Made by a program: the position numbers and the translations under genes. A model generated the notes under the pieces. That model saw only the letters and a program-made list of their open reading frames with translations, searched no databases and was not told the origin of the DNA. From Candidatus Moraniibacteriota bacterium (GTDB lineage Bacteria > Patescibacteriota > Minisyncoccia > Moranbacterales > GCA-2747515), in the NCBI GenBank assembly GCA_046116545.1, contig CP175956.1, positions 577,734-641,733 of the forward strand: a DNA stretch of 64,000 nt, written 5' to 3'. This document shows positions 1 to 58,584 of the stretch, one piece after another; position 1 is the first letter of the stretch, and every line of letters begins with the position of its first letter.

Positions 1-507
1 CTTATTCTTTTTGCTATAATAATTGGGGGATTTTTTGTATTTTATGAAAAAAATAATTTAAATGATGGAATAGTAGTAGAAGCAGATAACGTGCCGTATC
101 AGGAATATAATAACAAATCACAAATAGCAGATATAAACAAAAGTAATACAAATATTTTAACAATAAATGAATCAGAAGAAATAATAAAATCATTTTTTCT
201 TTTTTTAGAAGAGCAAAATGGACTTCACGGTGATCCAGAATATTATAAAAACCTAGACTTATATATAGATGTTGATAAAAAAACAGATGATAATCTTAAA
301 GGAATGATTAAAATTAGTAACGTTGAACGACATAGTACCCCGTATTTTTTGGCTACAAAAATTGATGATGAATGGAAGTTTATTTTTCAAGGACAAGATA
401 TGCCAAGTTGTGATTTAGTGGATAAATATAACATTCCAACAAAATTATTTTGGCCAAATACAGATAATGCTTGTTTTATAACAAAAACAGAAGTTAGAAG
501 ACATTAA
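1..507 (+). CDS. 5-prime-truncated CDS; membrane-anchored hypothetical protein (ORF-track start 91 is an internal GTG)
   Basis: The frame of ORF 91..507 stays open back to position 1 and encodes a hydrophobic helix (LILFAIIIGGFFVFY) ahead of the soluble domain. No recognisable family. Confidence 0.4.
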   Translation, partial: LILFAIIIGGFFVFYEKNNLNDGIVVEADNVPYQEYNNKSQIADINKSNTNILTINESEEIIKSFFLFLEEQNGLHGDPEYYKNLDLYIDVDKKTDDNLKGMIKISNVERHSTPYFLATKIDDEWKFIFQGQDMPSCDLVDKYNIPTKLFWPNTDNACFITKTEVRRH

Positions 508-611
508 AGGGGGTGTTTTTATGAGTTAGTGAGATGAAATAAAAGCTTTTAGAGTAGATGTTTCACCACAAAAAGTTCGAACGTCATTACCTACTCGGCT
601 CATCGATAAAA

Positions 612-635
612 AGCCCCATTTAATGGGGCTTTTTG
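612..635 (+). terminator. Rho-independent terminator hairpin inside repeat A1 (agcccca-ttta-tggggct + T-run)
   Basis: Perfect 7-bp GC-rich stem followed by TTTTT. Also reads as a hairpin on the minus strand. Confidence 0.7.
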
Positions 636-675
636 AGTACCCACTATGACAGGATCGAACTATTTTGAATTTTGA

Positions 676-704
676 TTGACTTTTTGTATATTTTATGCTA
701 ATAT
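676..704 (+). promoter_or_regulatory. Sigma70-like promoter TTGACT-17nt-TAATAT driving helicase gene 770..3013
   Basis: -35 TTGACT (676-681), 17-nt spacer, -10 TAATAT (699-704). A GGAGG RBS lies at ~759 ahead of ATG 770. Confidence 0.65.
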
Positions 705-769
705 TTAACGTTAGTATTTTTAACAAAAGAATATAAATTTTTCAAGAATTTCATATACGGAGGAGTAAA

Positions 770-3013
770 ATGATTGAATTATATCCAGAATATCAGGCAC
801 CAGCCTTTAAAAAGCTGGTTAAGCATTTTGTAAAGAATGTAGTTGGTCTTATGGTTATGGCAACAGGTCTAGGAAAGACAATTGTTGCTGCATTTTGGGC
901 TAAACGTGAATACAAAAAAGGTCGAAAGGGACTTTTCTTGTGTCACGATACAGGCATTCTTGATCAAGCAATGGATGAGTTTCAAAAAGTATTTGGGAGA
1001 AAAGTATCTCTTAAAACATTTTTTGGAAGTGATAAAGATTGGGATGCTGATAAAGGCGATATCGTTTTTGCAACATTTCAAACTTTACGTGAATCAAATC
1101 CATTTTTTAAAGATGAATTTGATTTTATTATTGTTGATGAGTCACATCATGCTCAGGCAGATACGTACAAAAAAGTGATTGAATATTTCAATCCAAAAAA
1201 ACTCTTAGGTATTACTGCTACTCCCAATAGGGAAGATGAACAGGATATTAGAGAGATATTTGGTGATGAAGTTGTAAACATCCCTTTGGAAGAAGCAATG
1301 GCTAAAGGGTGGTTGTCACAAGTTGAATATCACATTCTCAATGACAATTTAAGTCATTGGAAACTTAAAAAGATTGTTAAAGAGGTGCTTGAAGAGGGAA
1401 GAAGAATCTCTCGGAAACAACTTAATGAAACAATTTTTGTTAAAGCTCGTGATGAAGTAACTGCTCAGACGATTCAGGAATATGCAATTGGTAACAAAAA
1501 GGCGATAATCTTTTGCGAGAGTATCCCTCACGCAGATAACTTTCAAAAGTTTTTACCAAATGCACAAGTGTATCATTCAGAGAAATCAGAAAAGTACAAT
1601 CATAAAGTACTTCAAGATTTCAGAGAAGGTAATATCCAATATATCCTTACAATCAATAAGATGAATGAGGGTATTCATGTTTCTGATGCTGAGATTATCG
1701 TATTTCTTAGATGTACAGATTCAAAAACAATATTTTTTCAACAATTGGGCAGAGGATTAGAGAAACCTTTGAACAAGAAAAAAGTTATCGTTTTAGACTT
1801 TGTCGCAAATTGCGATAGAGTTGCAATGATTAAGGAGTTTTCACGAGAGATTAAGAAACGTGCAGGAAACAACTTTGAACTTACGAAGGATGTCCTTCAC
1901 GTTACTGGTAAAGCTTTTGATTTCATCTTTAATGATGAGCAAATTGATATTTTGGAGGTGATAAGAAAGATAACGACCAAAATTTATGTTTCAGATATTC
2001 CGCACTTACTTGCTGAGTATTCACTAAAGAATGATTTACTAGCAGATCAAGTGATTGCTGGTACGAATAAAAAACTTTGGTGGGTATGCTCTGCGTGTAA
2101 GTATGAATGGCAAGCACCTGGGAATAACCGTGTTACAGGAATCGGTTGCCCAGCATGTTCTGGTAGAGTTGCTACCAGAACCAATAATATTACCGTTACT
2201 CATCCTGAACTTACAAAAGAATATTCATCAGAGAATGAGTTGCTTGCGGATCAAATAAAATCTGGATCAAGTAAGAAGGTTTCGTGGATTTGTTCGAAAT
2301 GTGAACATGAATGGCAAGCAGTAGTGAATAGTCGAACTAGTGGCTGTGGTTGCCCATCTTGTAGAGGGATGGTTGTTACAAAAGCAAACAATCTTGCAGT
2401 TACCCATCCTGATCTTGCAAAGGAATATTCACCAAAAAATAAGTTACCAGCAAATCAGGTAATTGCTGGTACTGGTAAAAAGCTTTGGTGGATTTGTTCG
2501 AAATGCGAACATGAATGGCAGACAACAGGAGATAGTCGTAGTAAGCAGGGAACAGGTTGTTTAGCGTGTTTAAGAAGAATAGCTACAAAAGCAAACAATC
2601 TTGCAGTTACACATCCTGATCTTGCAAAGGAGTATTCATCAAAAAATAAATCATCAGCTGATCATGTAATTTCTGGATCACACGCAAAGCTTTGGTGGAT
2701 TTGTTCGAAATGTGAACATGAATGGCAAGCACCCGTAAGGAGACGTGCGGGAGGATCTGGTTGTCCTGCTTGTGCTAATCAAGTTGTAACAGATAAAAAC
2801 AATCTTACGGTCACCCATCCTAATCTTGCAAAGGAATATTCACCAAAAAATAAGTTACCAGCAAATCAGGTAATTGCTGGCACTGGTAAAAAGCTTTGGT
2901 GGATTTGTTCGAAATGCGAACATGAATGGCAAGCGACTGGAGCAAATCGAAGAACTGGTAGAGGATGTCCAGAATGTAAACGATGCAATAGCAGAAAAAA
3001 GAAGAAATCTTGA
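770..3013 (+). CDS. SF2 DEAD/DEAH-type helicase (type III restriction res-subunit-like ATPase core) with 5 C-terminal tandem zinc-ribbon-like repeats
   Basis: Walker A MATGLGKTIVAAF, DExH IIVDESHH, motif III GITATP and motif VI QQLGRGLE. The C-terminus carries 5 x ~68-aa units W-[WI]-C-S-x-C-E/K-H/Y-E-W-Q ... G-C-P-x-C. Confidence 0.75.
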   Translation: MIELYPEYQAPAFKKLVKHFVKNVVGLMVMATGLGKTIVAAFWAKREYKKGRKGLFLCHDTGILDQAMDEFQKVFGRKVSLKTFFGSDKDWDADKGDIVFATFQTLRESNPFFKDEFDFIIVDESHHAQADTYKKVIEYFNPKKLLGITATPNREDEQDIREIFGDEVVNIPLEEAMAKGWLSQVEYHILNDNLSHWKLKKIVKEVLEEGRRISRKQLNETIFVKARDEVTAQTIQEYAIGNKKAIIFCESIPHADNFQKFLPNAQVYHSEKSEKYNHKVLQDFREGNIQYILTINKMNEGIHVSDAEIIVFLRCTDSKTIFFQQLGRGLEKPLNKKKVIVLDFVANCDRVAMIKEFSREIKKRAGNNFELTKDVLHVTGKAFDFIFNDEQIDILEVIRKITTKIYVSDIPHLLAEYSLKNDLLADQVIAGTNKKLWWVCSACKYEWQAPGNNRVTGIGCPACSGRVATRTNNITVTHPELTKEYSSENELLADQIKSGSSKKVSWICSKCEHEWQAVVNSRTSGCGCPSCRGMVVTKANNLAVTHPDLAKEYSPKNKLPANQVIAGTGKKLWWICSKCEHEWQTTGDSRSKQGTGCLACLRRIATKANNLAVTHPDLAKEYSSKNKSSADHVISGSHAKLWWICSKCEHEWQAPVRRRAGGSGCPACANQVVTDKNNLTVTHPNLAKEYSPKNKLPANQVIAGTGKKLWWICSKCEHEWQATGANRRTGRGCPECKRCNSRKKKKS
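1990..3000 (+). repeat. In-frame tandem repeat array, 5 copies of ~204-207 bp (zinc-ribbon-like module) inside helicase 1
   Basis: THP[DE]LAKEYS...KLWWICSKCEHEWQ...GCPAC repeated. Copies starting ~2405 and ~2816 are almost identical at the DNA level. Confidence 0.85.
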
Positions 3014-3030
3014 AAAGGAGGAACATAAAG

Positions 3031-3068
3031 CCTCACCAATCATAACAATGATTGGTGAGGTTTTTTTT
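3031..3068 (+). terminator. Rho-independent terminator after helicase 1 (cctcaccaat ... attggtgagg + T8)
   Basis: 10-bp perfect stem followed by TTTTTTTT. Preceded by the conserved 3-prime flank AAGGAGGAACATAAA that is also found after helicase 2. Confidence 0.8.
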
Positions 3069-3074
3069 ATTATA

Positions 3075-3230
3075 TTTTAAGTGATTTTGTAGCAATAATG
3101 TAAGCTTTTAGCGAAGAATGAGCAATGCAAAAAGTTCGAACGTCATTACCTACTCGGCTCATCGATAAAGAGCTCCATTTAATGGAGTTTTTGTATGTTC
3201 CGCTATGGTATGGTTGAACTTTGAATTTGA
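3075..3230 (+). repeat. Family-A intergenic repeat, copy A2
   Basis: ...gtaagcttttagcgaagaatgagcaatgcaaaaaGTTCGAACGtcattacctactcggctcatcgataaagagctccatttaatggag...tggttgaactttgaatttgatcac. The internal hairpin is degenerate (agctccattt/aatggagtt). Confidence 0.8.
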
Positions 3231-3611
3231 TCACATTTTTAAATCAGTTGGTTTTACGTTGCAGTTTCTTTTTTTGTAATCTTTTATTAGTTGGGAGATG
3301 TGTTTTTTCATTTTTTTTAAAGTGATAATTTTTTCTTCAATGTCTTCTAAGTTGTTTTCTAGATAAGGCAGTAAGGATTGATGCTTGCACTTTGATGTAT
3401 TTAATTGTGTTGCCATTTCTTTTATCTCATTTAGAGAAAACCCGATTTTTTTTGCTTTCTTAATAAATAAGATAGCCTCTACATCAGCAGTGGAATAAAT
3501 TTTATAATTATTTGTACTATTTATAGTAGGCTTAACTAAATCGAGGTCGTTGTAGTGGCGAAGAGCGTCTTTGGTTATGTTCGTTTTTTGGAGCAAATCT
3601 TTTGTATACAT
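3231..3611 (-). CDS. MerR-family transcriptional regulator (CueR-like)
   Basis: N-terminal MerR HTH (MYTKDLLQKTNITKDALRHYNDLDLVKP...) with a coiled-coil C-terminus. Divergent from a MerR-type promoter with a 19-20 bp spacer. Confidence 0.8.
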   Translation of the reverse strand: MYTKDLLQKTNITKDALRHYNDLDLVKPTINSTNNYKIYSTADVEAILFIKKAKKIGFSLNEIKEMATQLNTSKCKHQSLLPYLENNLEDIEEKIITLKKMKKHISQLIKDYKKRNCNVKPTDLKM

Positions 3612-3617
3612 AAATAC

Positions 3618-3649
3618 TTGACAGTGGGGTTAACCCCATGGTTTATAAT
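3618..3649 (+). promoter_or_regulatory. MerR-type promoter/operator: TTGACA - 19/20-bp spacer containing palindrome TGGGGTTAACCCCA - TATAAT
   Basis: -35 TTGACA 3618-3623 and -10 TATAAT 3644-3649. The over-long spacer with a perfect dyad is the hallmark of MerR/CueR-activated promoters. It sits between the divergent merR-like gene and the HMA/copA genes. Confidence 0.8.
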
Positions 3650-3678
3650 GAAGTTAGTTTAGCATAATTATAAATAAT

Positions 3679-5049
3679 ATGACAGCAAAAAAGAATAAGT
3701 CACAAGAAAGAAAATTTTATATTAGTGGAATGCATTGTGCTTCTTGTAAAGGAATTGTAGAAGATCGTCTTCAAGAACAAAAAGAAGTACAAAGTGCAGA
3801 TGTTGATTTGAAAAAGGGAACAGTTGAAATTGTGTTTGAAAGTAGAGTATTAGAAGTAGATGAAATTACAAAAAAGTTTGAGGATGTAGGGTATTTTTTT
3901 TCAGAGCAACCTTTTAAGAAAAAAGCATATAAAAAGGTTGGGTTGGTCTTGCTTGTGGCTTTGATGGTAAGCTTTGTATTGATACAAAATGAACAGTTCA
4001 TGTTGTTTAGTGGAACAAATGTTGATGAAAATTCATCATTGATGGCATTTGTTGTGTTGGGGATAGTGGCTAGTTTATCTAGTTGTGTAGCCTTGGTGGG
4101 AGGAATCTTATTAGCTATGACAAAAAGTTGGACAAAGACAGTAGGCAAAGAAGCTTCACTTTCAAAAAAAATGGAACCACATATGAAATTTCATATTGGA
4201 AGGTTGGTGGCTTATTTTATAGGTGGTGGAATTTTGGGCTCTATCGGAAGTTTTATAACATTTGATAATCCAAGTGTGTATGCAGTACTTACTGCTTTAG
4301 TTGCAATTATAATGTTGTTGGTAGGATTGCAAATGTTAGGTGTAAAATGGGTTTTGAGAATGTATGTTTTTGCGTATGACAATACACTGAAAAAAATTCA
4401 TATTAATGATAACGTGAAAAATAAATCACCCTTTATTGCAGGTGCGGCAACATTTTTTATTCCTTGTGGATTTACCTTGATTGCACAAGGAGTGGCATTG
4501 ACTGCGGGCAGTTTTATGTCAGGAGCCGCAATTATGTCAGCATTTGCAATTGGAACATTACCAGTATTAATAGGTGTGAGCTTAGGAGGTGCTACTATGA
4601 TTGGCAAAAAAGGATTTGAAGTAATTTTTAATACTATAATAGGAACGATTATAATAATATTTGCAATTTATATATTAAATGGTCAATTTAATGTTTTGGG
4701 ATTACCTAGCTTAAATGATATTAGCTTTGAAAAAACAGGAGCTGTTGAGCAAATTGAAAATAGTAAAACTAACCAAAAGAATACTCAGGAGTTAAATATT
4801 GTAGCAGATGGTTTTGAATATGTAGTTTTGGGATCAAAAATACTGAAGGCAGGCGTGCCAACAACCATTATTGTGGATAATCAGGGTATTGTGGGATGTG
4901 GTGTTTTTATGGCAGCTAGAGGTTTGTTTGAGGGCATGATTGAATTAAAGCCAGGCATTAATAAAAAAGAATTTATACCAGAGGCGGGAACGTATAAATT
5001 AACATGTACTATGGGAATGGTTGCACCAGTTACAATTATTGTTAAATAA
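3679..5049 (+). CDS. Heavy-metal-associated (HMA) domain fused to a polytopic membrane domain and a C-terminal beta-rich (cupredoxin-like?) domain; copper-handling accessory protein
   Basis: N-terminal GMHCASCKG HMA motif, ~8 predicted TM helices (FFIPCGF segment) and a C-terminal soluble domain with a TCTMGM motif. Immediately upstream of copA. Confidence 0.55.
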   Translation: MTAKKNKSQERKFYISGMHCASCKGIVEDRLQEQKEVQSADVDLKKGTVEIVFESRVLEVDEITKKFEDVGYFFSEQPFKKKAYKKVGLVLLVALMVSFVLIQNEQFMLFSGTNVDENSSLMAFVVLGIVASLSSCVALVGGILLAMTKSWTKTVGKEASLSKKMEPHMKFHIGRLVAYFIGGGILGSIGSFITFDNPSVYAVLTALVAIIMLLVGLQMLGVKWVLRMYVFAYDNTLKKIHINDNVKNKSPFIAGAATFFIPCGFTLIAQGVALTAGSFMSGAAIMSAFAIGTLPVLIGVSLGGATMIGKKGFEVIFNTIIGTIIIIFAIYILNGQFNVLGLPSLNDISFEKTGAVEQIENSKTNQKNTQELNIVADGFEYVVLGSKILKAGVPTTIIVDNQGIVGCGVFMAARGLFEGMIELKPGINKKEFIPEAGTYKLTCTMGMVAPVTIIVK

Positions 5050-5056
5050 TAAAATT

Positions 5057-7345
5057 ATGATTACACAAAAATATTATGTTTCAGGAATGCATTGTGCTTC
5101 TTGTAAGGTGAATATAGAAAATGAGTTAAAGAAAAATGAATTAATTGAGGAAGCTTCCGTGAATTATAGTGCTGAAACAATGCAAGTTACATTTAATGAA
5201 AAAGAATTAAGTGATGGTGATATTCAAAAATTAGTTAGAGGCATTGGTGATTATGATACGCGTCCAGATAATGATGGGGGGCGAAGTAAACATCAGAAAG
5301 AGAAAAATGAAAATTTAAGTAAGATGAAGCGAAATTTAATATATGTATCAATTGCTGCAGCACCTTTTATCATGAGTATGGCATTCATGCTAATAAATGG
5401 AATATTTGATTTAAATATTTTGGGTGGTTTTTCAACAAGGTTAGATAGTATAATGCTTTTTGGAATATCAGTTGTGAGTATAGCTCAAATTGTATTAGCT
5501 GGATTTGTTCTGTTTGTTGGCGGAAGATTATTTTTTGTTAATGCATTTGCAGCGATAAAAAAAGGTTCAAGTAATATGGATACATTGGTAGTGCTAGGTG
5601 CAACTACTGCTTGGATTTATTCTACGATTGTTACGATATTTTTTGCAGGCAGTGAACAGGAGTTTGTTGTGTTTTTTGAGGCATCTGTGTTTATTATATT
5701 TTTTATTTTAGTAGGTAGATATTTTGAAGAAAAAGCTAGGACAGCGACACAAAAAAGTGTGGAAAGTTTATATGCAATACAATCAAAAGTAGCTGTTGTT
5801 TTGCGGGATTTGAAAAAGGTAGAGATTGCAATTAAGAACGTTGTAAAAAAAGACAATGTTGTCGTTATGCCGGGACAAAAAATTCCTGTAGATGGAGTTA
5901 TAATTGAAGGTAAAACAGCAATTGATGAGTCAATGATCTCTGGAGAAGCTTTTCCGGTGGATAAAAAAGAAGGTGATGCTGTCATAGGTGGCACACTTAA
6001 TACAACGGGTTATATTGTTTTTGAAGCAACTAAGGTTGGTAAGGATACAATGCTTTCACAAATTATTAAAATGGTTGAAGAAGCTCAGGGGAGTAGTGTG
6101 CCAATTCAAAAACTTGCAGACAAAATTTCAAGTATTTTTGTACCCATTGTAATAATTATTGCTGTAGGCACATTTATCTTTTGGTATTTTGTTGCGCCAA
6201 ATATGAACTTGATAGAGGCTTCACAAGCATTGCCATTTGCGGTATATGTGACAATTTCTGTTTTGGTCATAGCATGTCCATGTGCGCTTGGACTTGCAAC
6301 GCCAACTGCGATAATTGTATCGGTAGGACATGCAGCCAGAAAGGGAATTTTAATTAAAAATGCACAAATTATTGAAAATGCATTCAAGATTAAAAATATA
6401 GTTTTTGATAAAACAGGAACAATTACGCAAGGTAAACCAGCTGTAACAGATTCTGTTTATTTTGACGATGAAAAAAAATACGCAAATTATGTGTATGCTT
6501 TGGAAAATAAAACAGAGCATCCTGTGGCTAAGGCGATAATAAATTTTTTGGAAGTTAGTGAAAATAATTTAAGTGAAGAAAAGGTTGAGGATTTTCATAA
6601 TTTAGAAGGCGTAGGCGTGAGAGGTATTATTGACGGAGAAAAAGTCATGATGGTGAAAATGAGTTCTGTTAAAGAATATGCAAAACTGACTTTGGAACAA
6701 AAAAATGTTACAAACAGTTTTCTTGAAAAAAAATATACAATATCAGTGTTTATAGTTGGAGATTCAATAAAGGCAATTTTTGCAGTAACAGATCCAATAA
6801 AAGAAACTAGTTACAAGGCAATTAGTGCATTGAAAGAAAAAGGAATTAAAACAACTATGGTAACAGGTGATAATGAGAATATTGCACAGTGGGTTGCTTC
6901 TAGTGTTGGAATAGATAATGTAGTAAGTGATGCAGTGCCGCTAGACAAAGATAGAATCGTGCAAAAAATTAAAAAGGAATCAAAAGAAGGTGAATTAATT
7001 GCAGTTGCGGGTGATGGTGTGAATGATGCACCAGCGCTGGCTAGAGCTGATATTGGAATTGCGATGGGTACAGGTTCAGACGTTGCGATTGAATCAGGAG
7101 ATATTGTAATTGTTAAGGGATCATTGCAAAAGATTGTTGATGCAATAAATTTATCTAAAAAAACAATGCACATAATAAAACAAAATCTTTTTTGGGCGTT
7201 TGGATATAATGTTCTAGCTATTCCGATTGCAATGGGGTTCTTGTATCCATTTTTTGGTGTAGTTTTGTCACCGACTATTGCAAGCGCTGCAATGGCACTT
7301 AGTTCCATAAGCGTTGTTTTAAATAGTTTGCGTTTGAGGCGATAA
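5057..7345 (+). CDS. copA: Copper-translocating P1B-type ATPase
   Basis: N-terminal HMA GMHCASCK, TM CPC motif (ACPCALGLATP), phosphorylation site DKTGTIT and GDGVNDAPAL. The start moves to ATG 5057 (after the upstream stop 5047-5049) rather than ORF-track 5021. Confidence 0.9.
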   Translation: MITQKYYVSGMHCASCKVNIENELKKNELIEEASVNYSAETMQVTFNEKELSDGDIQKLVRGIGDYDTRPDNDGGRSKHQKEKNENLSKMKRNLIYVSIAAAPFIMSMAFMLINGIFDLNILGGFSTRLDSIMLFGISVVSIAQIVLAGFVLFVGGRLFFVNAFAAIKKGSSNMDTLVVLGATTAWIYSTIVTIFFAGSEQEFVVFFEASVFIIFFILVGRYFEEKARTATQKSVESLYAIQSKVAVVLRDLKKVEIAIKNVVKKDNVVVMPGQKIPVDGVIIEGKTAIDESMISGEAFPVDKKEGDAVIGGTLNTTGYIVFEATKVGKDTMLSQIIKMVEEAQGSSVPIQKLADKISSIFVPIVIIIAVGTFIFWYFVAPNMNLIEASQALPFAVYVTISVLVIACPCALGLATPTAIIVSVGHAARKGILIKNAQIIENAFKIKNIVFDKTGTITQGKPAVTDSVYFDDEKKYANYVYALENKTEHPVAKAIINFLEVSENNLSEEKVEDFHNLEGVGVRGIIDGEKVMMVKMSSVKEYAKLTLEQKNVTNSFLEKKYTISVFIVGDSIKAIFAVTDPIKETSYKAISALKEKGIKTTMVTGDNENIAQWVASSVGIDNVVSDAVPLDKDRIVQKIKKESKEGELIAVAGDGVNDAPALARADIGIAMGTGSDVAIESGDIVIVKGSLQKIVDAINLSKKTMHIIKQNLFWAFGYNVLAIPIAMGFLYPFFGVVLSPTIASAAMALSSISVVLNSLRLRR

Positions 7346-7423
7346 ATTTTAAATTATGTAAATTTAAGTTTTTTCTGTTAACAATATTGCATATGTGTTA
7401 ATGACATCATTTACTATTATTTT

Positions 7424-7600
7424 GTAAAACTAAAGGTTTTCAGTGAAGAACTAGTGGTATAAAAAGTTCGAATGTCAGTAACTATTCAGCTCATCGATAA
7501 AAAGCCCCATTTAAGGGGGCTTTTTGAGTACCCACTATGCAAGGATCAAACTATTTTGTATTTCGATTGACTTTTTATGTATTTTATGCTAATATTTAAT
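7424..7600 (+). repeat. Family-A intergenic repeat, copy A3 (full length with outward promoter)
   Basis: ~90% identical to A1 across the GTTCGAAT...terminator hairpin (aagcccca-ttta-agggggct)...GGATCAAACT...TTGACT...TAATAT module. Confidence 0.85.
7567..7595 (+). promoter_or_regulatory. Sigma70-like promoter TTGACT-17nt-TAATAT driving helicase gene 7663..9618
   Basis: Same promoter module as 676-704. Downstream RBS GAAGGAGA at 7651-7658. Confidence 0.65.
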
Positions 7601-7662
7601 GTTTGTTGACTTAATAATTGAAGATAATAAAATACGTTTCTCATAAAAGGGAAGGAGATAAT

Positions 7663-9618
7663 ATGAGTATTTCTAATTTTTGTAAATCTGTTGCAAAACT
7701 TCTTGAAACTCATTTAGAGTTTTCAAAAAGTAGTTTGCGTAGTGTACAGGTAGGCGGTTTTGAAAAGCTTATCAATTTTATCAATTCTGGTAAATTGAGT
7801 GGCTTAGTAAAACATCCTACAGGTGCAGGCAAAACTCGTTTTTTTTGCGAAGTTTTGTCAGCACTTAATATGCCTTCGCTCATTCTTGTACCAAGAACGA
7901 ACCTTGTAGCTGATACAAAGGAATCACTTGTTGGTAACGAGATGAGAGATGTAGAAGGTGTGGGTTATTTGGAAGAAGATATATTTCTTTTGAGTGATGA
8001 ATTTGGAAAAGCAGCCATTGCTTTAAAAAGCATTTTTGATAATATCATTAAAATGCAGGATTTTGGAGGAGTTGTCATCATGTCATATCAGTCGTTTTTG
8101 AGTATTTCAAAGCATGATATGTATACTCTTGATGATTTTATGAAACTCATCAAGGTAGTCATATCTGATGAAGCTCATAGAGGACTTGGAGATGAAACGC
8201 AAGAGGTTATCAAGCAATACAATGATGACATCATTGGAGATGGTGTTGATCGAGTGCATTTGCACATGACAGCAACTCCACAATTGGGTCATAAAAATGT
8301 ATGTGACATATATGATATTGAAGTGATAGATTGGGTACGTGTACAAGATTCTGTTGAAGATGGAATCCTTATCATGCCACAATTTCGTCATTTTGGTACA
8401 GCCACATACAAAACTACTGATGATATTAAATTTTCTGACAAGTTCTTTGAAAGTCTTGCAGAAAGTGAGAAGTTCGTCATGGATAATGGCCAATCTGTAA
8501 CTGAGGCAGCTATAGATGAATACATTATGTTAAAAGAAAAGCATGATGGATATTTACCTGGAGTTGTATTTTGTGGAACTATTGCTCATGCAGAGGCCAC
8601 TAAACAATATTTACTGTCACGAGGACTAAGGGCAATTCGCTCTACAAGTTCTAATAAACAGTATGATTGTGGCGTAAATCCTGACAGAGCAAGAGAGATG
8701 TTTCACAGCGAAGAAATCGATCTTGTAGTTACAGTAAGTAAGGTTGGAGAAGGTTGGGATGTGCCAACACTTCGCTGTGCCATTTGGCTTAGGCCAGTAG
8801 GTTCATCTGCAGTATATCTTCAAGGTACAGGTCGTGTGATGCGAACACTTCTTGATAATACCGTACATGCATTTAAGGATCGTTCAAATACTTATGTGAT
8901 TGAACCACTTTGGGAACTTGTACGTGTAAGTAGTGTAACAGAAGACAAAAAAGAAGATGAACATGAAAAAGAAATCGTAGAGAATGATTTAGCTGATACT
9001 GATTCTGATGCACAAACAACTGTATATCCGTCAAGAAATGGATATGAACATTTTGTTACAGCAGATGAATTTGATGTTGAAGCGCTACGTTCAATTGTTG
9101 GAGGAGATGCGCGTATTCATATGGATATTGATTTTCATAATGATGAGCATCTTCGAATCCTGATTGGTAGTGTAGACAAGCTTATTGTTAAAGGTAAGGG
9201 TGTGAATTTAGTAAAAGTGACTTTCATTAATACTGAACAAGATTGGAAAGTAACAGGTCGTGTTATTGGCAGAGTTTTGTGGAATAACTCAAGTCCAAAA
9301 ATTTATGATGCAGAAAAACTGGCTAAACAGTTATGGCCAGAGGAAGTTGAGAATTTGTTACCAAAGGAAAGATTTAATCCTAAGGATGATAATCACCTTC
9401 GAATACTAATAGGAAATGTAGATAATCTTATTGTTAATGGTAAGGGTGTGAGTTTAGTAAAAGCAACTTTCATTAATGCTGAACGAGGTTGGAAAGTAAC
9501 AGGTGGTGTTATTGGTAATGCTTTGTGGAAAAAGAAAAGTCCAAATATAGCTGATGCAGAAAAACTGGCTAAACAACTTTGGCTTGAAGAGGCTGAGAAG
9601 TTGTTGGACAAAAAATAA
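7663..9618 (+). CDS. SF2 DEAH-type helicase (ResIII-like core) with a C-terminal duplicated ~82-aa domain
   Basis: Walker A HPTGAGKTRF, DEAH VISDEAHR, motif III MTATPQ and motif VI QGTGRVMR. The start is moved to ATG 7663 (strong RBS) from ORF-track 7618. The C-terminus has 2 x (HLRILIG.VD.LIV.GKGV.LVK.TFIN.E..WKVTG.VIG..LW...SP.I.DAEKLAKQLW). Confidence 0.75.
   Translation: MSISNFCKSVAKLLETHLEFSKSSLRSVQVGGFEKLINFINSGKLSGLVKHPTGAGKTRFFCEVLSALNMPSLILVPRTNLVADTKESLVGNEMRDVEGVGYLEEDIFLLSDEFGKAAIALKSIFDNIIKMQDFGGVVIMSYQSFLSISKHDMYTLDDFMKLIKVVISDEAHRGLGDETQEVIKQYNDDIIGDGVDRVHLHMTATPQLGHKNVCDIYDIEVIDWVRVQDSVEDGILIMPQFRHFGTATYKTTDDIKFSDKFFESLAESEKFVMDNGQSVTEAAIDEYIMLKEKHDGYLPGVVFCGTIAHAEATKQYLLSRGLRAIRSTSSNKQYDCGVNPDRAREMFHSEEIDLVVTVSKVGEGWDVPTLRCAIWLRPVGSSAVYLQGTGRVMRTLLDNTVHAFKDRSNTYVIEPLWELVRVSSVTEDKKEDEHEKEIVENDLADTDSDAQTTVYPSRNGYEHFVTADEFDVEALRSIVGGDARIHMDIDFHNDEHLRILIGSVDKLIVKGKGVNLVKVTFINTEQDWKVTGRVIGRVLWNNSSPKIYDAEKLAKQLWPEEVENLLPKERFNPKDDNHLRILIGNVDNLIVNGKGVSLVKATFINAERGWKVTGGVIGNALWKKKSPNIADAEKLAKQLWLEEAEKLLDKK
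9139..9618 (+). repeat. In-frame direct duplication (2 x ~246 bp) forming the C-terminus of helicase 2
   Basis: The protein repeats begin DDEHLRILIGSVDKLIV... and DDNHLRILIGNVDNLIV.... Confidence 0.8.
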
Positions 9619-9636
9619 AGGAGGAACATAAACTCA

Positions 9637-9670
9637 AAAGCCATTACAGGAATAACTGTAATGGCTTTTT
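9637..9670 (+). terminator. Rho-independent terminator after helicase 2 (agccattacag ... ctgtaatggct + T5)
   Basis: 11-bp stem + TTTTT. Preceded by the conserved AAGGAGGAACATAAA 3-prime flank. Confidence 0.8.
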
Positions 9671-9671
9671 C

Positions 9672-9830
9672 ATATTTTGAGTGATCTTGGAGTAATAATG
9701 TAGGCTTTTAGGGAAGAATGGGCAATACAAAAAGTTCGAACGTCATTACCTAGTCGGCTCATCGATAAACAGCCCCATTAAATGGGGCTTTTTGAGTATC
9801 CACTATGATAGGATCGAACTATTGTGATAG
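9672..9830 (+). repeat. Family-A intergenic repeat, copy A4
   Basis: ...gtaggcttttagggaagaatgggcaatacaaaaaGTTCGAACGtcattacctagtcggctcatcgataaacagccccattaaatggggctttttgagtatccactatgataGGATCGAACTattgtg. Confidence 0.85.
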
Positions 9831-9877
9831 TATTATGACTGAATGATATATAAATAAATTATAAAAATATAGTATAT

Positions 9878-10660
9878 ATGAACAATTATTTAGAATTTGC
9901 AAAAAGTGTTGCGGAAGGTGCATCTGAAATAGCATTGAAATATTTTGGTTTTGATGTTGCAAATACTTGGAAAAGTGATAATACACCGTTAACAAAAGCT
10001 GATACAGAAATTAACTCGTATGTAATCAAAAGAATATCAGAAAAATATCCTGAACATAGCGTGGTAGGTGAAGAGGAGAGTAAACTAGTAAACGATTCAA
10101 AATATATATGGGTGTGTGATCCGATAGATGGAACAATCCCATATTCTTGTGGACTGCCTATGTGGACTTTTTCACTTGCTTTGGTTGATGTTAAAACAGG
10201 TCAGCCAATTGTTGGTATTGTGAATGATGTTATGATGAAAAATATGTATTGGGCACATAAGAATGGAGGAGCTTTTCGGAATGGTGAAAAAATTCAAGTT
10301 TCAAATAAAGACAGTCTCAAAAAGACTTATTTAAATGTTGATGGAACAGGTAAAGATATGAATTTTTCTGGTATAAATACAATAAATTCTCTACAAAACA
10401 ATGGAGCAAAAGTTATGAAATTGTTATCAATTATATATGGTGGTGTGCAGGTATCTAACGGTAAATTTGTAGGTACTGTATTTTTTCATCCATATGCTCA
10501 TGATGTTGCTGCATTAAAAATTATAATTGAAGAAGCTGGAGGTAAGGTTACAGATTTAAATGGTGATGAACGCAGATATGATAAAGATGGGATTGGATGT
10601 GTAATTTCAAATGGAACTTTGCATAATGAAATACTATCGTGTGTAAGTAAGTTGAATTAA
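9878..10660 (+). CDS. Inositol monophosphatase-family phosphatase
   Basis: IMPase signature WVCDPIDGT (W-x-x-D-P-[IL]-D-G-T) and an upstream metal-binding EEE segment (VVGEEES). Confidence 0.75.
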   Translation: MNNYLEFAKSVAEGASEIALKYFGFDVANTWKSDNTPLTKADTEINSYVIKRISEKYPEHSVVGEEESKLVNDSKYIWVCDPIDGTIPYSCGLPMWTFSLALVDVKTGQPIVGIVNDVMMKNMYWAHKNGGAFRNGEKIQVSNKDSLKKTYLNVDGTGKDMNFSGINTINSLQNNGAKVMKLLSIIYGGVQVSNGKFVGTVFFHPYAHDVAALKIIIEEAGGKVTDLNGDERRYDKDGIGCVISNGTLHNEILSCVSKLN

Positions 10661-10668
10661 ATTTTTGA

Positions 10669-10697
10669 TTGACTTTTTATATGTTTTATATTAGAGT
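10669..10697 (+). promoter_or_regulatory. Promoter-module fragment homologous to the A-repeat promoter (TTGACT-17-TAGAGT)
   Basis: ttgattgactttttatatgttttatattagag aligns with ttgattgactttttgtatattttatgctaatat of A1/A3. Confidence 0.5.
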
Positions 10698-10702
10698 ATA
10701 GT

Positions 10703-10779
10703 GTCCATTAGAGGACAGCAACTAACTAGCGGAATGCTAGTTCTTTAACAAAACTGGCGGAATGCCAAAGGAGAAAGTC
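10703..10779 (+). promoter_or_regulatory. Structured 5-prime leader: three short hairpins, two with identical GGAAU pentaloops (ctagcGGAATgctag; tggcGGAATgcca), ending at the RBS
   Basis: gtgtcc-atta-gaggacagc, aactagc-ggaat-gctagtt and tggc-ggaat-gcca run directly into AAGGAGAAAGTC-ATG. Confidence 0.4.
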
Positions 10780-11949
10780 ATGGAACACAAAACTGAAACT
10801 CAGATTGCTAAATTAATTATGGATTTTCCAATTGTAGGTCTAATTCGATTTGCACAACGATCTGGGAATGGTAAATTGCCAAAAACAGATGTTCATATTC
10901 AGCGAGCTGATCCAGGAACTATGCACTTACAAGCAAGTAATTGCAGATATAAAGATCGTTCATATATTGGCGGAAAAAATAATCTACGGGGTACCAGGAC
11001 TGAATATATGATTGCTATTGATTGTGATGGCAAGCCAATGGAATATTTGGAATGGGATAGGGGTGATTTTGAAAAAATGTCAAAGGACATATTTGAAATA
11101 GCATCTCCAGAAAAAGTAGATTATTTGGTGTGGGCAAGTGCTATAAATTGGTATACGCCTTCATCTGAAGAGCGAGAAGAAAAAACAGGTGGAAACCTGT
11201 TTGATCAGTTTGTTGATGCGGAAGTTGATATTATTATTTTTCAACAACCCAAAAATCAGACTTTTGCCGAACTGATAAAGATAGCTGATGAACAGAAAGA
11301 GAGGCGTGAAAATGCATATAAATTTCTTCCTGATGTAATGCCTGAATTTACAGGCATTTACAAAGGACTTAAAGATGGTGGTGAAATCCATGCATTTTGT
11401 TCTGGAGGTGGCTTAAGAGTTGTATATATGCGTCGCGATGGTAGTGATGATAATATGGCATACGGTGAACATCCACACATTGAAGATGCTTTAAATCATC
11501 TTGAAGAAGACTTTTTGGCTGGTAGCAGAAAGTATAAAGATGTGTACGGAGGTTTGTACCCACACTATCTTACTGGTGAATCTATTGCTACTAGTAATTT
11601 GGATTCTTGGATTTTACAGGGACGTACCTTTGATTGTTTTCAAGTGAGAGATGAAATTCATTTTGTATTAAATGGTTGTGGAGAATCTAAAATGCCAAAG
11701 GACGTGTATAATAAGGTAATAGGAACATTTGAACCCGTGCAATGGAAGCATCGAGGTTTTATATTTTTATCAAAACCTTCAAGTATTGGTACCTGCATGG
11801 GTGTCAGTGTTAACGTGATTGCATCGCCAATAAATGGTAAAGGCCTTAATCCACATCGGTATAATTTTGTAAAGTTGGGAAAAAGTAAAACCTTTTGGGA
11901 AGCTGTAAAAAAAGCGTTTGAAGCACCAGAGACTGAAGTTCAACCATAA
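10780..11949 (+). CDS. Hypothetical protein (390 aa)
   Basis: Long ORF with good RBS (AAGGAG, 6-nt spacing) at the second ATG, used instead of ORF-track 10762. No recognisable motifs. Confidence 0.5.
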   Translation: MEHKTETQIAKLIMDFPIVGLIRFAQRSGNGKLPKTDVHIQRADPGTMHLQASNCRYKDRSYIGGKNNLRGTRTEYMIAIDCDGKPMEYLEWDRGDFEKMSKDIFEIASPEKVDYLVWASAINWYTPSSEEREEKTGGNLFDQFVDAEVDIIIFQQPKNQTFAELIKIADEQKERRENAYKFLPDVMPEFTGIYKGLKDGGEIHAFCSGGGLRVVYMRRDGSDDNMAYGEHPHIEDALNHLEEDFLAGSRKYKDVYGGLYPHYLTGESIATSNLDSWILQGRTFDCFQVRDEIHFVLNGCGESKMPKDVYNKVIGTFEPVQWKHRGFIFLSKPSSIGTCMGVSVNVIASPINGKGLNPHRYNFVKLGKSKTFWEAVKKAFEAPETEVQP

Positions 11950-11962
11950 ATTAAACTATGTT

Positions 11963-12004
11963 AATACCACCATTCGATTTAATATCGAGTGGTGGTATTT
12001 TTTA
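11963..12004 (+). terminator. Rho-independent terminator (ataccacc ... ggtggtat + T6)
   Basis: 8-bp stem with a long loop, then TTTTTTATT. Confidence 0.55.
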
Positions 12005-12088
12005 TTGTAAAACAAAGACTTTTAGTGAAGAATTAACATCACAAAAAGTTCGAACGGTAGTACCTACTATAGATAGGATCGAACTAAG
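12005..12088 (+). repeat. Family-A repeat, short copy A5 (both ends present, internal hairpin deleted)
   Basis: tgtaaaacaaagacttttagtgaagaatt...aaaaGTTCGAACGgtagtacctactatagataGGATCGAACTaag. The two inverted termini lie only ~25 bp apart. Confidence 0.75.
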
Positions 12089-12178
12089 ATAGACAAAAGA
12101 TGTAGTTTGATATAGAATAAATAGTCAGTTCATTAAATAATTATTTTATTACAAATTCAATTAAAGGGGTATCGAATT

Positions 12179-12406
12179 ATGATTTCAGTTGGTAATATTG
12201 AAAGATTTATTGATAATCATCCAGAACTTAATCTCGATAAAGATAAGATTATGAGACAGGCTGATGAATTAGCTCGTCAAGAGGTCTTGTCTGGCGGAGT
12301 AGTTGGAGATTTACTTGGCAATTTGGACGCATTATTTTTTCGTGAATTTCATTTTGACATAGAGCATCTTAAGGTTGCTGCAAAAGATGTAATAAATATG
12401 GAGTAG
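12179..12406 (+). CDS. Hypothetical small protein (75 aa)
   Basis: ORF with RBS-like AAAGGGG upstream. No family recognised. Confidence 0.35.
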   Translation: MISVGNIERFIDNHPELNLDKDKIMRQADELARQEVLSGGVVGDLLGNLDALFFREFHFDIEHLKVAAKDVINME

Positions 12407-12426
12407 TTATATCTAATAAATTTGAA

Positions 12427-13227
12427 GTGAGGGAGATGAAAATGAGAGAATCACAACGATATTCTAAAAAGCTTATTATTATAATTACGGTTGTTATTAT
12501 TTGTGGAATTGTAAGCACTCTGTGGATGATGTTTGGCAAGGATAGTATATCTTTTTCTGAGCATGATGCACGTGAGCAAATTGCAAAACATATTCCAACA
12601 ACCAAGATTGATACAATTGTTGGTATGGAATATTCAATTACCATTGATCAGGTAAGTGTTGATTTTGTTGAGGGTGATCGAATTGGTATTGAAGCAAGTG
12701 GCATTGTTGATAGTAGTAAGGGGGGTGTTAATTTTTCTGTTGTAACTGTAGGTGTTCCAGATCTTAGAAATAATGCTTTTTATTTTAGACCTAACTCCTT
12801 TGAGTTTACTGAATTTGTGTTTTCAAAAAAGGCTCAAAAAAGCAGTCGTGTTCTAGGTATTGTGGCAGCTAATACTATTAAAAAGTATACTGGTGATCTT
12901 TTTAAGGGAACTGATATTAAGATTGATAAAAAGGCAATAACGGAAAAGATTCAGGCTAAGATTAAAATAATGACTCATAGTGCTATTGTGGGATATCTAA
13001 ATAAAAATCCAATCAAAAAACTTGAAACTGGCAAAGAGAAAATTATAGGTGCAGCTATCAAAAAGATTAGCGTAGATGGCGATAATATCACCATTCACTT
13101 TTCTTTTTGGAATTTAGCAAAATATGTTTTAGTGTTTATATTGGCTTTTATTGCAGCTATTGGACTTTTAGTTTCTGCTCCATGGTGGGCAGCTGACCTT
13201 GCATTTCTTGCGGCTATTTTAAGTTAA
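12427..13227 (+). CDS. Membrane-anchored hypothetical protein (N- and C-terminal TM helices)
   Basis: N-terminal helix LIIIITVVIICGIVSTLWMMF and C-terminal helix VLVFILAFIAAIGLLV. Confidence 0.45.
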   Translation: MREMKMRESQRYSKKLIIIITVVIICGIVSTLWMMFGKDSISFSEHDAREQIAKHIPTTKIDTIVGMEYSITIDQVSVDFVEGDRIGIEASGIVDSSKGGVNFSVVTVGVPDLRNNAFYFRPNSFEFTEFVFSKKAQKSSRVLGIVAANTIKKYTGDLFKGTDIKIDKKAITEKIQAKIKIMTHSAIVGYLNKNPIKKLETGKEKIIGAAIKKISVDGDNITIHFSFWNLAKYVLVFILAFIAAIGLLVSAPWWAADLAFLAAILS

Positions 13228-58554: not shown

Positions 58555-58584
58555 AAACAGATAGATTGTATTATAGTAATTACT

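Follow-up and report, generated by a model that had tools for sequence, protein, structure and literature searches.

A composite intergenic repeat frames two SF2 helicase genes and unrelated neighbours in a tRNA-Gly-anchored variable island of Candidatus Moraniibacteriota

Introduction

Why should two helicase genes that hardly resemble each other stand between nearly the same non-coding sequences? The question is raised by a 64-kb stretch of DNA (the window) from a Candidatus Moraniibacteriota MAG, that is, from an uncultured member of the CPR/Patescibacteria with a tiny genome. The genomes of the CPR/Patescibacteria are small and are usually called poor in mobile elements, and to our knowledge the way in which these organisms acquire accessory and defence genes is largely unexplained. 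A preliminary description of the window had proposed that the two genes, hel1 (770-3013) and hel2 (7663-9618), may be swappable alleles in near-identical frames, comparable to phase-variable specificity subunits, and had asked for a search for the same frames with different inserts in other genomes. Here we describe the frames, the genes between them and their counterparts in related genomes; the cross-genome evidence comes from about eight short MAG or metagenome loci.

Results

The first ~16 kb of the window form a hypervariable accessory-gene island directly 3' of a tRNA-Gly(UCC) gene, which spans ~117-190 nt upstream of window position 1. The tRNA lies at 2692-2765 of contig L008, in which position 2882 corresponds to window position 1; L008 and L019 belong to the same genome as the window and served as its upstream extension. 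All six copies of a boundary repeat found with nhmmer (four full and two partial) lie within 535-13361 of the 64-kb window, and a pattern for the left arm of the repeat matched six times in the window, against 0.00 matches expected by chance. The remaining 50 kb hold mostly housekeeping genes and no copy of the repeat.

The repeat belongs to a composite non-coding element of five modules that brackets both helicase genes. Its first module, the left arm (LA), is a nearly invariant sequence of 33 nt, AAAAAGTTCGAACGTCATTACCTACTCGGCTCA, that ends in GCTCA. A terminator hairpin of one of two types (T1 or T2) and a weakly conserved, inverted right arm (RA) come next, and two optional modules consist of a TTGACT-17-TGnTAATAT promoter with its 5' UTR (P) and of a 3' terminator module. 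Across 13 copies the T1 stem is 97% paired and contains compensatory changes; the helix that LA and RA could form is 68% paired, with no covariation beyond controls. Full copies end in imperfect terminal inverted repeats of 14-15 nt (CAAAAAGTTCGAAC versus the reverse complement CAAAATAGTTCGATC), and nhmmer gives self-reverse matches of the element. RA is degenerate in copy B of the window, in L001_3621 and in L028, and is absent from L004, L005 and copy F, while copies E and F of the window and L001_5120 are truncated or internally deleted.

Every repeat copy, promoter module, helicase gene and helicase 3' module of the island is on the + strand, as are the ORF next to the tRNA and the genes behind copy D. 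The island begins with cassette 0, whose 3' part (1-507) encodes an ORF of 177-181 aa (ORF181) that starts ~30-40 nt before the window and has no known domain (no match in Pfam or PADLOC). Copy A follows at 535-667 (nhmmer E 3e-46) and is made up of a short leader (535-569), LA (570-602), T1 (603-634) and an inverted RA (635-667). It is joined to the P module of hel1 (668-769), with a -35 element at 676-681, a TG-extended -10 element at 699-704 and the ribosome binding site GGAGGAG. Behind hel1, a gene for 747 aa, stands a 3' module (3014-3072) that consists of AAAGGAGGAACATAAA and then an intrinsic terminator (3027-3064). Copy B (3073-3226; E 1e-40) has a long leader (3073-3128), LA (3129-3161), T1 (3162-3193) and its degenerate RA (3194-3226). 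Between copies B and C lies a three-gene metal-resistance cassette (3231-7345), in which Pfam recognises a MerR regulator (3231-3611, - strand), an HMA-DsbD_2 protein (3679-5049) and a P-type ATPase (5021-7345).

Copy C (7426-7558; E 3e-43) repeats the layout of copy A, with leader at 7426-7460, LA at 7461-7493, T1 at 7494-7525 and RA at 7526-7558, and leads into the P module of hel2 (7559-7662; -35 at 7567-7572, TG-extended -10 at 7590-7595). The 651-aa hel2 gene is followed by its own 3' module (9619-9672), composed of AGGAGGAACATAAA and a terminator hairpin (9636-9669), and by copy D (9673-9826; E 6e-45), with a long leader (9673-9728), LA (9729-9761), T1 (9762-9793) and RA (9794-9826). Farther on are a gene of the inositol monophosphatase family (9878-10660), the promoter core for the third time (10663-10704) and ORF395 (10762-11949), which has no known domain. 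In the partial copy E (12008-12088; E 3e-9) the leader and LA are joined straight to an RA-like end with deletion of the central hairpin, and copy F (13294-13361, also found with nhmmer) is leader and LA only; its equivalent in L003 directly adjoins an xth-like gene, whose position in the window is 3 kb farther on, at 16369. The two partial copies and the third promoter indicate that the frames are not exclusive to helicases. Besides the helicases, the array carries as cargo the small ORF, the MerR/HMA/P-type-ATPase operon, the inositol monophosphatase gene with ORF395, and more. The order ORF181-copy A-hel1 is reproduced in the independent assemblies L017 and L019, and L019 runs on through copy B to the MerR gene.

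The similarity of the 5' flanks of the two helicase genes had been put at about 90% over about 180 bp. This similarity is real and the figure slightly high: 570-736 and 7461-7627 are 86% identical over 167 nt, or 78% over 254 nt if the diverged 5' UTRs are included. The TTGACT-17-TAATAT promoter is present in both flanks as described, in each case with a TG extension. Conservation of the 3' flanks, with a motif right after the stop codon, was likewise borne out; these flanks align at 81% identity over 211 nt, shorter alignments give 83% (155 nt) and 92% (65 nt), and all 14 bases of AGGAGGAACATAAA agree behind the two stop codons. Among all sequences examined this 14-nt motif is limited to hel1 and hel2, and the terminator hairpins that follow it (3027-3064 and 9636-9669) differ in sequence.

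Both proteins are SF2 helicases of the ResIII type and very different from each other, as the preliminary description held, with 21% identity over 303 aa that is confined to the motor region. Proteins P0001 and P0121, encoded on a Moraniibacteriota contig of 1.286 Mb, match hel1 and hel2 at 100% identity. Hel1 begins at once with the motor (ResIII at residues 7-154), which continues into Helicase_C and is followed by five DUF4379 treble-clef zinc-ribbon repeats (E 1.4e-78, period 204 nt). Hel2 has a divergent motor with the same two Pfam domains, ResIII and Helicase_C, and ends in two repeats of 82 aa that are 82% identical at the DNA level; the repeat is an orphan, confidently folded domain. 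Tandem repeats at both C-termini are confirmed; they may, as the preliminary description suggested, set the specificity of the proteins. The closest homologue of hel2 (49% identical, in L015) has no copy of the boundary repeat beside it, and among the loci examined we found neither a hel2 orthologue with frames nor an independent assembly of the hel2 cassette.

The motor of hel1 matches PADLOC mREase_IV (E 4e-47), and its best PDB sequence match covers residues 227-562 of 7clg (E 4.5e-44), again in the motor only. Hel2 matches the mREase_IV and 7clg families weakly, and the NCBIfam matches of both helicases are all far under the cut-offs. Searches for nuclease (including PLD), methyltransferase and SRA domains gave none in hel1, hel2 or the neighbouring genes, and the island contains no methyltransferase partner, as had been noted before. 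A type III (Res/Mod) or type IV (SauUSI-like) restriction enzyme was considered and rejected: the motor is there, but it comes without a nuclease, a Mod partner or a modified-base reader. Judged by their predicted domains, hel1 and hel2 are SF2 ATPases of the translocase type that stand alone and end in repeat domains, and are not restriction-modification components. They may act in nucleic-acid sensing or defence; the likeness of the motor to the one in SauUSI, a type IV restriction enzyme, only hints at a defence role.

In seven related lineages the left flank of the island is syntenic and comprises genes for IF2, a DUF4446 protein, a DsbA-like and an FNR-like protein and tRNA-Gly; loci L017-L032 show this conserved flank. 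The tRNA-Gly(UCC) gene is directly upstream in the window's genome and in L001, L016, L024 and L028-L032. Gene content after the tRNA differs in each lineage, yet it stands in the same frames, and an all-against-all BLASTP comparison of the cargo found only the hel1 orthologues and one other common family. In L001 six copies downstream of tRNA-Gly stand between ORFs for 233, 195, 128, 446 (a Fic protein), 138 and 159 aa. The order is tRNA|T1-RA-P, ORF397, repeat and ORF183 in L024; ORF211, repeat with P, ORF389 and repeat in L028; a zeta-toxin-like gene, ORF287 and repeat in L031 and L032; and repeat, mTERF-like ORF, repeat and xth in L003. Module P also stands upstream of unrelated genes in L001 (4460-4566 and 6790-6893) and L024 (11243-11344), and the 3' terminator module of the hel1 type is found behind unrelated cargo in L001, L003 and L028 and behind a hel1 orthologue in L002. 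Two cargo genes keep their own frames while their neighbours change, namely hel1 in the window, L016, L002 and L013, and the mTERF-like ORF in L003 and L028.

Direct comparison of the segments behind the tRNA gave the same frames with different inserts twice. The segment tRNA|T1-RA-P is 88% identical between L016 and L024 over 195 nt, up to the ATG, and leads to a hel1 orthologue in the former and to an unrelated 397-aa ORF in the latter. The segment tRNA|T2-P2, which has a hairpin of the second type with its own promoter, shows 85% identity between the window's genome and L029, where it precedes ORF181 and a zeta-toxin-like kinase, respectively; these proteins are unrelated. The preliminary description was accordingly right that conserved frames (85-88% identical) surround unrelated cargo, as is expected of exchangeable cassettes or defence islands; the frames are not specific to helicases. 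Between genomes LA is 94-100% and LA with T1 83-100% identical, and the frames show 84-100% identity, compared with 67-83% for the adjacent FNR gene. Isolated copies of LA with T1 also occur outside any recognised array, between ABC ATPase and LamG protein genes in L004 and between GT2 and CoiA-like genes in L005, which indicates that the element can exist as a dispersed intergenic repeat too. In our search of genome contigs the element was found in Moraniibacteriota only.

In the loci examined, the clearest comparison of a filled and an empty site is at the tRNA itself. In the close relative L016, whose hel1 is 83% identical at the DNA level, T1-RA-P-hel1 comes right after the tRNA; in the window's genome T2, a promoter, ORF181, a leader and LA are placed between the tRNA end ...GCTCA and T1. 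The difference is a whole cassette. The hairpin-RA-promoter part without LA abuts a functional tRNA in exact register in three genomes, and T2 is found behind a real tRNA in four lineages and behind LA variants in L002 and L003. The tRNA 3' end and LA are interchangeable left partners of T1 and T2, and the join always falls after GCTCA. These five nucleotides are the only solid sequence common to the tRNA and LA at the junction; pairwise alignments of the two are not clearly above shuffles, and with a profile built from 16 LA copies the tRNA scored no higher than 3000 shuffled sequences did. In L028 a perfect 56-nt duplicate of tRNA positions 20-75 lies right behind the tRNA.

Discussion

The element has a modular anatomy, is clustered in one island, is reused around unrelated genes and is better kept than the coding DNA beside it, and hel1 and hel2 are two unrelated cargo genes in different cassettes of one array. 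We favour, with moderate confidence, the reading that the island is a tRNA-anchored hypervariable array of self-expressed gene cassettes which turns over by recombination at the frames. A cassette would then run from the T1 or T2 hairpin through RA, a sigma70-type promoter with 5' UTR, the cargo, a 3' terminator module and a leader to LA. The hairpin would insulate the cassette from its upstream surroundings, and the frames would provide each incoming gene with a terminator-insulated promoter. Gain, loss and replacement of cassettes through the frames could follow either of two routes: site-specific recombination, in which a recombinase encoded elsewhere acts at or close to GCTCA, or homologous recombination, for which the frames, at 85-100% identity, would be the sole good homology arms in genomes with ~70% identity elsewhere.

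We found no gene for an integrase, a transposase or a recombinase of another kind in the island, in the other window ORFs that were tested or in the gene tables of the related loci, and nothing in the loci examined, such as a circular cassette junction, pointed directly to mobility. A narrower form of the cassette reading, which we advance as tentative and somewhat doubtful, is that Moraniibacteriota carry an integron-like but mechanistically distinct system. A recombinase acting in trans (possibly a host Xer-type or other chromosomal enzyme) would insert and excise single genes with their own promoter and terminator, bounded by the 33-nt site that ends in GCTCA; it would do so at the tRNA-Gly(UCC) 3' end and at the secondary sites that result.

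It is possible, though rather unlikely, that the repeat moves and the gene does not. A repeat of the MITE, REP or Correia type, which propagates itself or is amplified passively and is equipped with a terminator and an outward promoter, could pile up in a permissive, fast-evolving region, and its link with the helicases would be incidental. Such an element would account for the imperfect terminal inverted repeats and self-reverse matches of the full copies, for truncated or internally deleted copies such as E, F and L001_5120, for isolated copies between housekeeping-type genes (L004 and L005), for the restriction to the Moraniibacteriota lineage, and for frames more conserved than the adjacent coding gene, as recently spread elements should be. 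However, RA is poorly conserved and the LA-RA helix only 68% paired, the isolated copies are LA and hairpin without RA, and target-site duplications are not evident by eye in the flanks. Nor does a moving repeat readily explain why six of six window copies are packed into 13 kb of 64 kb, why hairpin-RA-promoter units that lack LA stand in register behind a functional tRNA in three genomes, why two cargo families retain both 5' and 3' frames amid changing neighbours, or why unrelated cassettes have 3' terminator modules and 5' UTRs in common beyond the palindromic core.

We consider it improbable that LA and the hairpin are kept by selection as a functional RNA or protein-binding element (a stability or processing signal in 3' UTRs, or a multicopy small RNA made of a single-stranded 33-nt part and a terminator) and not as a recombination site. 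The 94-100% identity of LA across lineages would fit such a role, as would its constant orientation on the strand of the flanking genes and the terminator-like, compensated hairpin that follows it at once; in copies A and C, moreover, LA lies inside the upstream gene's 3' UTR, where T1 is the sole terminator. Against this, copies B and D sit between two terminators, Rfam contained no match to the element even at E values up to 10, no consistent promoter was found 5' of LA, and the change of gene content exactly at the elements and the replacement of LA by the tRNA end are left unexplained. An RNA function of this kind is compatible with the cassette reading.

That hel1 and hel2 represent one helicase cassette, as paralogues or as alternative alleles, arisen by duplication, gene conversion or phase variation with the flanks as a pair-specific recombination substrate, is very improbable: their frames are the most similar within the genome, AGGAGGAACATAAA is limited to the pair, and copies B and D have long leaders with 92% identity, which suggests intragenomic homogenisation of the 3' frames, but 21% identity confined to the motors, with unrelated C-termini, is incompatible with co-divergence after duplication next to flanks of ~86% identity, the same frames around unrelated genes elsewhere largely refute the idea, hel1 orthologues and their frames are stable in three other genomes, and each gene is on the same strand with its own promoter, without inverted sites or a recombinase. 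Of the earlier proposal of swappable alleles, then, the swappable cassettes stand and the helicase alleles do not, since hel1 and hel2 were never seen as alternatives at one slot; of phase variation there is no sign.

If the integron-like form of the cassette reading were true, these organisms would share a common pool of plug-and-play genes for accessory and defence functions, which would pass between lineages whose divergence is too great for ordinary homologous recombination. A tRNA-anchored frame locus would be a concrete and testable mechanism of gene flux in the CPR radiation and a natural "landing pad plus expression cassette" design, and the 33-nt LA would serve as a simple probe for variable accessory genes in metagenomes with these organisms.

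The likeness of the helicases to known proteins is one of motors. Hel1, and weakly hel2, resembles the ATPase of SauUSI-type type IV enzymes, the motors of type I and III restriction enzymes and RadD/XPB-like SF2 helicases. Unlike the restriction enzymes, the two proteins have no PLD or other nuclease, SRA-like reader or methyltransferase partner, and they differ from all of these proteins in their C-termini, with five DUF4379 domains in hel1 and two orphan 82-aa domains in hel2.

Correia elements of Neisseria can give terminators and outward promoters to adjoining genes. Like these elements and MITE, REP and BIME repeats, the repeat described here is ~100-150 nt long, lineage-specific and intergenic, has inverted ends and occurs as full, truncated and internally deleted copies. 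It departs from all of these in having one nearly invariant arm and another that is weakly conserved or missing, in being clustered in one island at breakpoints of gene content with no target-site duplication seen by eye, and in being interchangeable with a tRNA 3' end.

Integron attC arrays, including attC clusters without an integrase, likewise consist mostly of single-gene units with unrelated cargo, each ending in a conserved imperfect palindrome of ~100 nt, and their cassette content also varies among close relatives. Here, however, no IntI gene stands beside the array, the arms (AAAAAGTTCGAAC and GATCGAACTATTTT) do not fit the attC R'' (RYYYAAC) and R' (GTTRRRY) sites, and long-range pairing is not conserved. 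The cassettes have a promoter and terminator each in place of promoterless genes with a common Pc, and the array is anchored at a tRNA gene.

In this last feature the locus resembles tandem islands at tRNA or tmRNA genes and CIMEs, such as the ssrA islands of Dehalococcoides, in which a variable region 3' of a small-RNA gene breaks conserved synteny and units are separated by direct repeats, many of them without an integration gene. CIMEs (integrase-less, cis-mobilizable elements) and their accretion have been defined (PMC5704250). In the ssrA islands a conserved motif just upstream of the repeat, which does not align with the RNA gene, was used to place the crossover (PMC3146451); the locus described here likewise has a conserved motif by the repeat that does not align with its RNA gene. 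Most units of the present array are single genes of 0.7-2.5 kb and not multi-gene islands, and no unit of the loci examined contains an integrase. Whereas the repeats of tRNA islands copy the tRNA 3' end, the present repeat shares only GCTCA with the tRNA and reaches ~60-165 nt past its end, through terminator, inverted arm and promoter, and the frames also hold common 5' UTRs and 3' terminators.

Two helicase genes in matching flanks

Pfam confirmed the two SF2 helicase genes of the preliminary description, hel1 (770-3013, 747 aa) and hel2 (7663-9618, 651 aa), with a ResIII + Helicase_C motor in each and different C-termini. The C-terminal part of hel1 consists of five DUF4379 treble-clef zinc-ribbon repeats, which have a 204-nt periodicity at the DNA level, and that of hel2 of two 82-aa repeats. 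The proteins are 21% identical over 303 motor residues and have no similarity elsewhere. Conserved frames, the non-coding modules around a cargo gene, were found on both the 5' and 3' sides of the two genes, but the 5' identity first put at ~90% over ~180 bp measured 86% across 167 nt (570-736 versus 7461-7627), or 78% across 254 nt with the diverged 5' UTRs counted. The 3' flanks are 81% identical across 211 nt, with sub-stretches of 83% and 92%. An identical AGGAGGAACATAAA directly follows both stop codons; the gene-proximal terminator hairpins (3027-3064 for hel1, 9636-9669 for hel2) are not alike in sequence. Within the window genome these two 3' frames are the most similar: the motif after the stop codon, 14 nt long, is unique to them and their leaders are 92% identical, which suggests that local gene conversion has acted between them.

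The frames are not confined to the helicases: partial copies of the boundary repeat lie at 12008-12088 and 13294-13361, and a third copy of the promoter core lies at 10663-10704. A degenerate 24-nt left-arm pattern matches six times in the window versus none expected, and all six repeat copies are confined to 535-13361.

Modules of the boundary repeat

Alignment of all repeat copies resolved a leader, in a short form or a long form of ~56 nt; a left arm (LA) of 33 nt, AAAAAGTTCGAACGTCATTACCTACTCGGCTCA, near-invariant across 13 copies drawn from about eight genomes; a hairpin of terminator type (T1), which has A and T tracts and is 97% paired with compensatory changes; and a poorly conserved right arm (RA), which repeats the LA start imperfectly in inverted orientation. 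An optional module (P) carries a promoter, TTGACT-17-TGnTAATAT, and a 5' UTR. A separate 3' module, ...ACATAAA plus the hairpin CCTCAYCRRTCA...TGATTGGTGAG, stands after hel1 and also after unrelated genes in three related loci (L001, L003 and L028). Pairing between LA and RA is maintained at only 68%; the long-range helix of an attC-like folded palindrome is not conserved, and that candidate was rejected. The whole window had no match in Rfam at gathering thresholds, and at E up to 10 only chance-level terminator-like matches appeared, on two repeat copies. A phage or plasmid origin of the element was likewise rejected, as the repeat pattern in IMG/VR, the 3' frame in a plasmid collection and the 5' frame in a phage collection were all without match.

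Related loci also contain variants of these modules. Iterated AGGTATAAT / GGTATAATTATACC separates the boundary repeat from the start of a Fic gene in L001 (5195-5295) and of a hel1 orthologue in L013 (~440-500, minus strand), and forms an alternative promoter module of the same frame system that possibly bears an operator. Left arms with insertions of ~20-45 nt occur in L024 (12660-12707; CCTCCAGAGGCGGACAGGC), L003 (~5160-5085, minus strand; a CCCTGTACCATCTGGTATAGGG hairpin, then TTCGGCTCA) and L002 (2148-2215), which suggests that the boundary element has layers that are nested or older.

The helicase proteins

The hel1 motor matched the PADLOC mREase_IV model (E 4e-47) and residues 227-562 of PDB 7clg, the type IV restriction ATPase SauUSI; judged by these matches, the SauUSI motor is the one that it most resembles. 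No nuclease domain, modified-base reader or methyltransferase partner was found for hel1, and its curated NCBIfam matches all fell far under their cut-offs. Homologues of hel1 number more than 4000, predominantly from Patescibacteria; their DUF4379 repeat number varies, and some have PHINT repeats in place of DUF4379. In another assembly of the same population (SWBY01006766.1; L019 3651-5357 versus window 2015-2929), hel1 has 568 rather than 747 aa through fewer DUF4379 repeats, which is either true repeat-number variation or a collapse of the 204-nt repeats in short-read assembly. A protein search returned only 11 homologues of hel2. Its 82-aa repeat has a confident predicted fold (pLDDT >90) without a PDB neighbour, and a search of 1.84 billion proteins gave only 16 cluster representatives that contain it. 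A 651-aa ORF in L002 is equal to hel2 in length, yet unrelated in sequence. In the literature we found only incidental mentions of DUF4379 helicases. A nucleic-acid-sensing or defence role for the helicases is plausible because of the cargo of sister arrays, among which are a Fic protein that matches SoFic, a GIY-YIG protein and a zeta-toxin-like kinase.

Position of the island and its junction with tRNA-Gly

A Candidatus Moraniibacteriota MAG encodes, on a 1.286-Mb contig, proteins identical to hel1 and hel2. A metagenome contig from this organism, L008/L019, shares sequence with the window and adds 2.9 kb upstream, in which a tRNA-Gly(UCC) ends ~117 nt before window position 1; ARAGORN found no tRNA within the window. 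Upstream of this tRNA are genes for an FNR-like oxidoreductase, a DsbA-like protein and DUF4446. The genes of the window from 16369 on are of ordinary housekeeping kinds (xth, TrmB-type methyltransferase, EngB-like GTPase, Clp ATPase, EF-P, SSB, S6, MreB, PBP2, LepA and RecQ).

In L016, L024 and L001, T1-RA-P directly follows the functional tRNA-Gly in exact register, so that ...CCCGCTCA is joined to TYGATAAAAAGCCCC...; in the repeats, LA takes the place of the tRNA and ...CTCGGCTCA is joined to TCGATAAAAAGCCCC... Compared with its close relative L016, the window genome has an extra block of a second hairpin type (T2), promoter, ORF181, leader and LA between the tRNA's GCTCA and T1. In four lineages T2 itself stands after the real tRNA, in L002 and L003 it stands after LA variants, and still other sequences follow the GCTCA of LA in the repeat copies at 13294-13361, L003_4247 and L001_7838. 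The varied sequences joined after the GCTCA of either the tRNA or LA mark GCTCA as a recurrent breakpoint, with the tRNA end and LA as interchangeable left partners. The equivalence of the two is positional alone and homology is not claimed: their resemblance, GTTCGA ... CTAC.C.GCTCA, is colinear, yet not significant against shuffles in pairwise and profile tests, and LA as a decayed tRNA-Gly 3' half was rejected. In L028 (10731-10860), positions 20-75 of tRNA-Gly(UCC) are repeated in tandem, as a perfect 56-nt duplicate, immediately after the tRNA, and T2 comes next; the pattern resembles a scar left by recombination or duplication at the island anchor, and shows that such events at this locus involve the tRNA end.

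Frames and cargo in related genomes

A scan of public genomes and metagenomes found the left arm in Moraniibacteriota MAGs only. Further loci were gathered through homologues of the FNR-like gene, and about eight short loci underlie the comparison. All FNR-recruited loci share synteny in the left flank (IF2, DUF4446, DsbA-like, FNR-like, tRNA-Gly), and the gene content 3' of tRNA-Gly differs in each lineage. The tRNA is followed by ORF181 and then hel1 in the window genome, by hel1 directly in L016, by a 397-aa ORF in L024, by 233-, 195- and 128-aa ORFs, a Fic protein and two further ORFs in L001, by 211- and 389-aa ORFs and then others in L028, by a zeta-toxin-like kinase and a 287-aa ORF in L029-L032, and by PEP-CTERM-type and NAD-salvage genes, without the repeat, in L025/L026. 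An all-against-all BLASTP of cargo proteins yielded just two shared families, hel1 orthologues and an mTERF-like ORF; both occur in more than one genome, where they retain their own frames and have changed neighbours. The 394- to 397-aa ORFs of L002 and L024 were rejected as relatives of ORF395 in the window, as their sequences are unrelated.

The expectation that the same frames would carry other inserts in other genomes was realized. The tRNA/T1-RA-P segment is 88% identical across 195 nt, reaching the ATG, between L016 (hel1) and L024 (ORF397), and tRNA/T2-P2, with promoter module P2, is 85% identical between the window genome (ORF181) and L029 (kinase). Between genomes in which the adjacent FNR gene is 67-83% identical at the DNA level, LA is 94-100% and LA+T1 83-100% identical.

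Other repeats and genes in the window

A second short repeat family, GTTGGCCCTATGGGAKGARGTTCGAAC, has one copy after each of the right-end genes RecQ (60727-60761), glyoxalase (61217-61251), ORF376 on the minus strand (62717-62751) and ORF261 (63790-63824). The related loci searched contained no copy of this family, which possibly marks another cassette-like array. It has the motif RGTTCGAAC in common with LA of the main repeat, and all seven sites of that motif in the window lie within the two families (0.22 expected). The start of RecQ (58519-60723) is overlapped by 11 nt by the end of a reverse transcriptase gene (Pfam RVT_1; 57498-58529, plus strand), whose best NCBIfam match, the retron St85 family, scores 131 bits against a cut-off of 235. 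A diversity-generating retroelement was rejected for this gene, as no template/variable repeat pair was found nearby. A 2215-aa ORF (38495-45142, plus strand) with ~13 tandem 201-nt (67-aa) repeats probably encodes a large surface protein.

Proposed cassette exchange and likeness to known systems

The best-supported reading of the region is a tRNA-Gly-anchored hypervariable island of self-expressed cassettes, and the preliminary idea of swappable cassettes in conserved frames is upheld by the unrelated cargo inside the same frames in related loci. The frames would insulate and express each cargo gene and would double as handles for cassette gain, loss and replacement. The main rival is a repeat of the MITE, REP or Correia type spreading on its own. 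It has in its favour the truncated copies and the LA+T1 copies that stand alone in L004 and L005; against it, the right arm is weak or absent, the copies are clustered, the repeat forms a junction with the tRNA, and cargo is co-inherited with its frames. Strict helicase alleles or phase variation, as proposed earlier for hel1 and hel2, are not supported, since the frames flank unrelated genes in other lineages.

Exchange of cassettes in such an island could follow two routes. A recombinase encoded in trans might carry out site-specific recombination at or near GCTCA, or homologous recombination might proceed via the frames, the sole stretches at which these lineages, ~70% identical elsewhere, reach 85-100% identity. 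Examination of the island sequences, in the window and the related loci, turned up no recombinase, and the mechanism therefore stays inferential. In the literature we found neither arrays of this kind nor integron-like systems described for Patescibacteria. Cis-mobilizable elements without an integrase and accretion arrays at tRNA/tmRNA genes have been described (PMC5704250; PMC3146451), and the site-specific route would be analogous to those integrase-less elements. The Moraniibacteriota array stands between tRNA-linked accretion arrays, integron cassettes and promoter- or terminator-bearing intergenic repeats.
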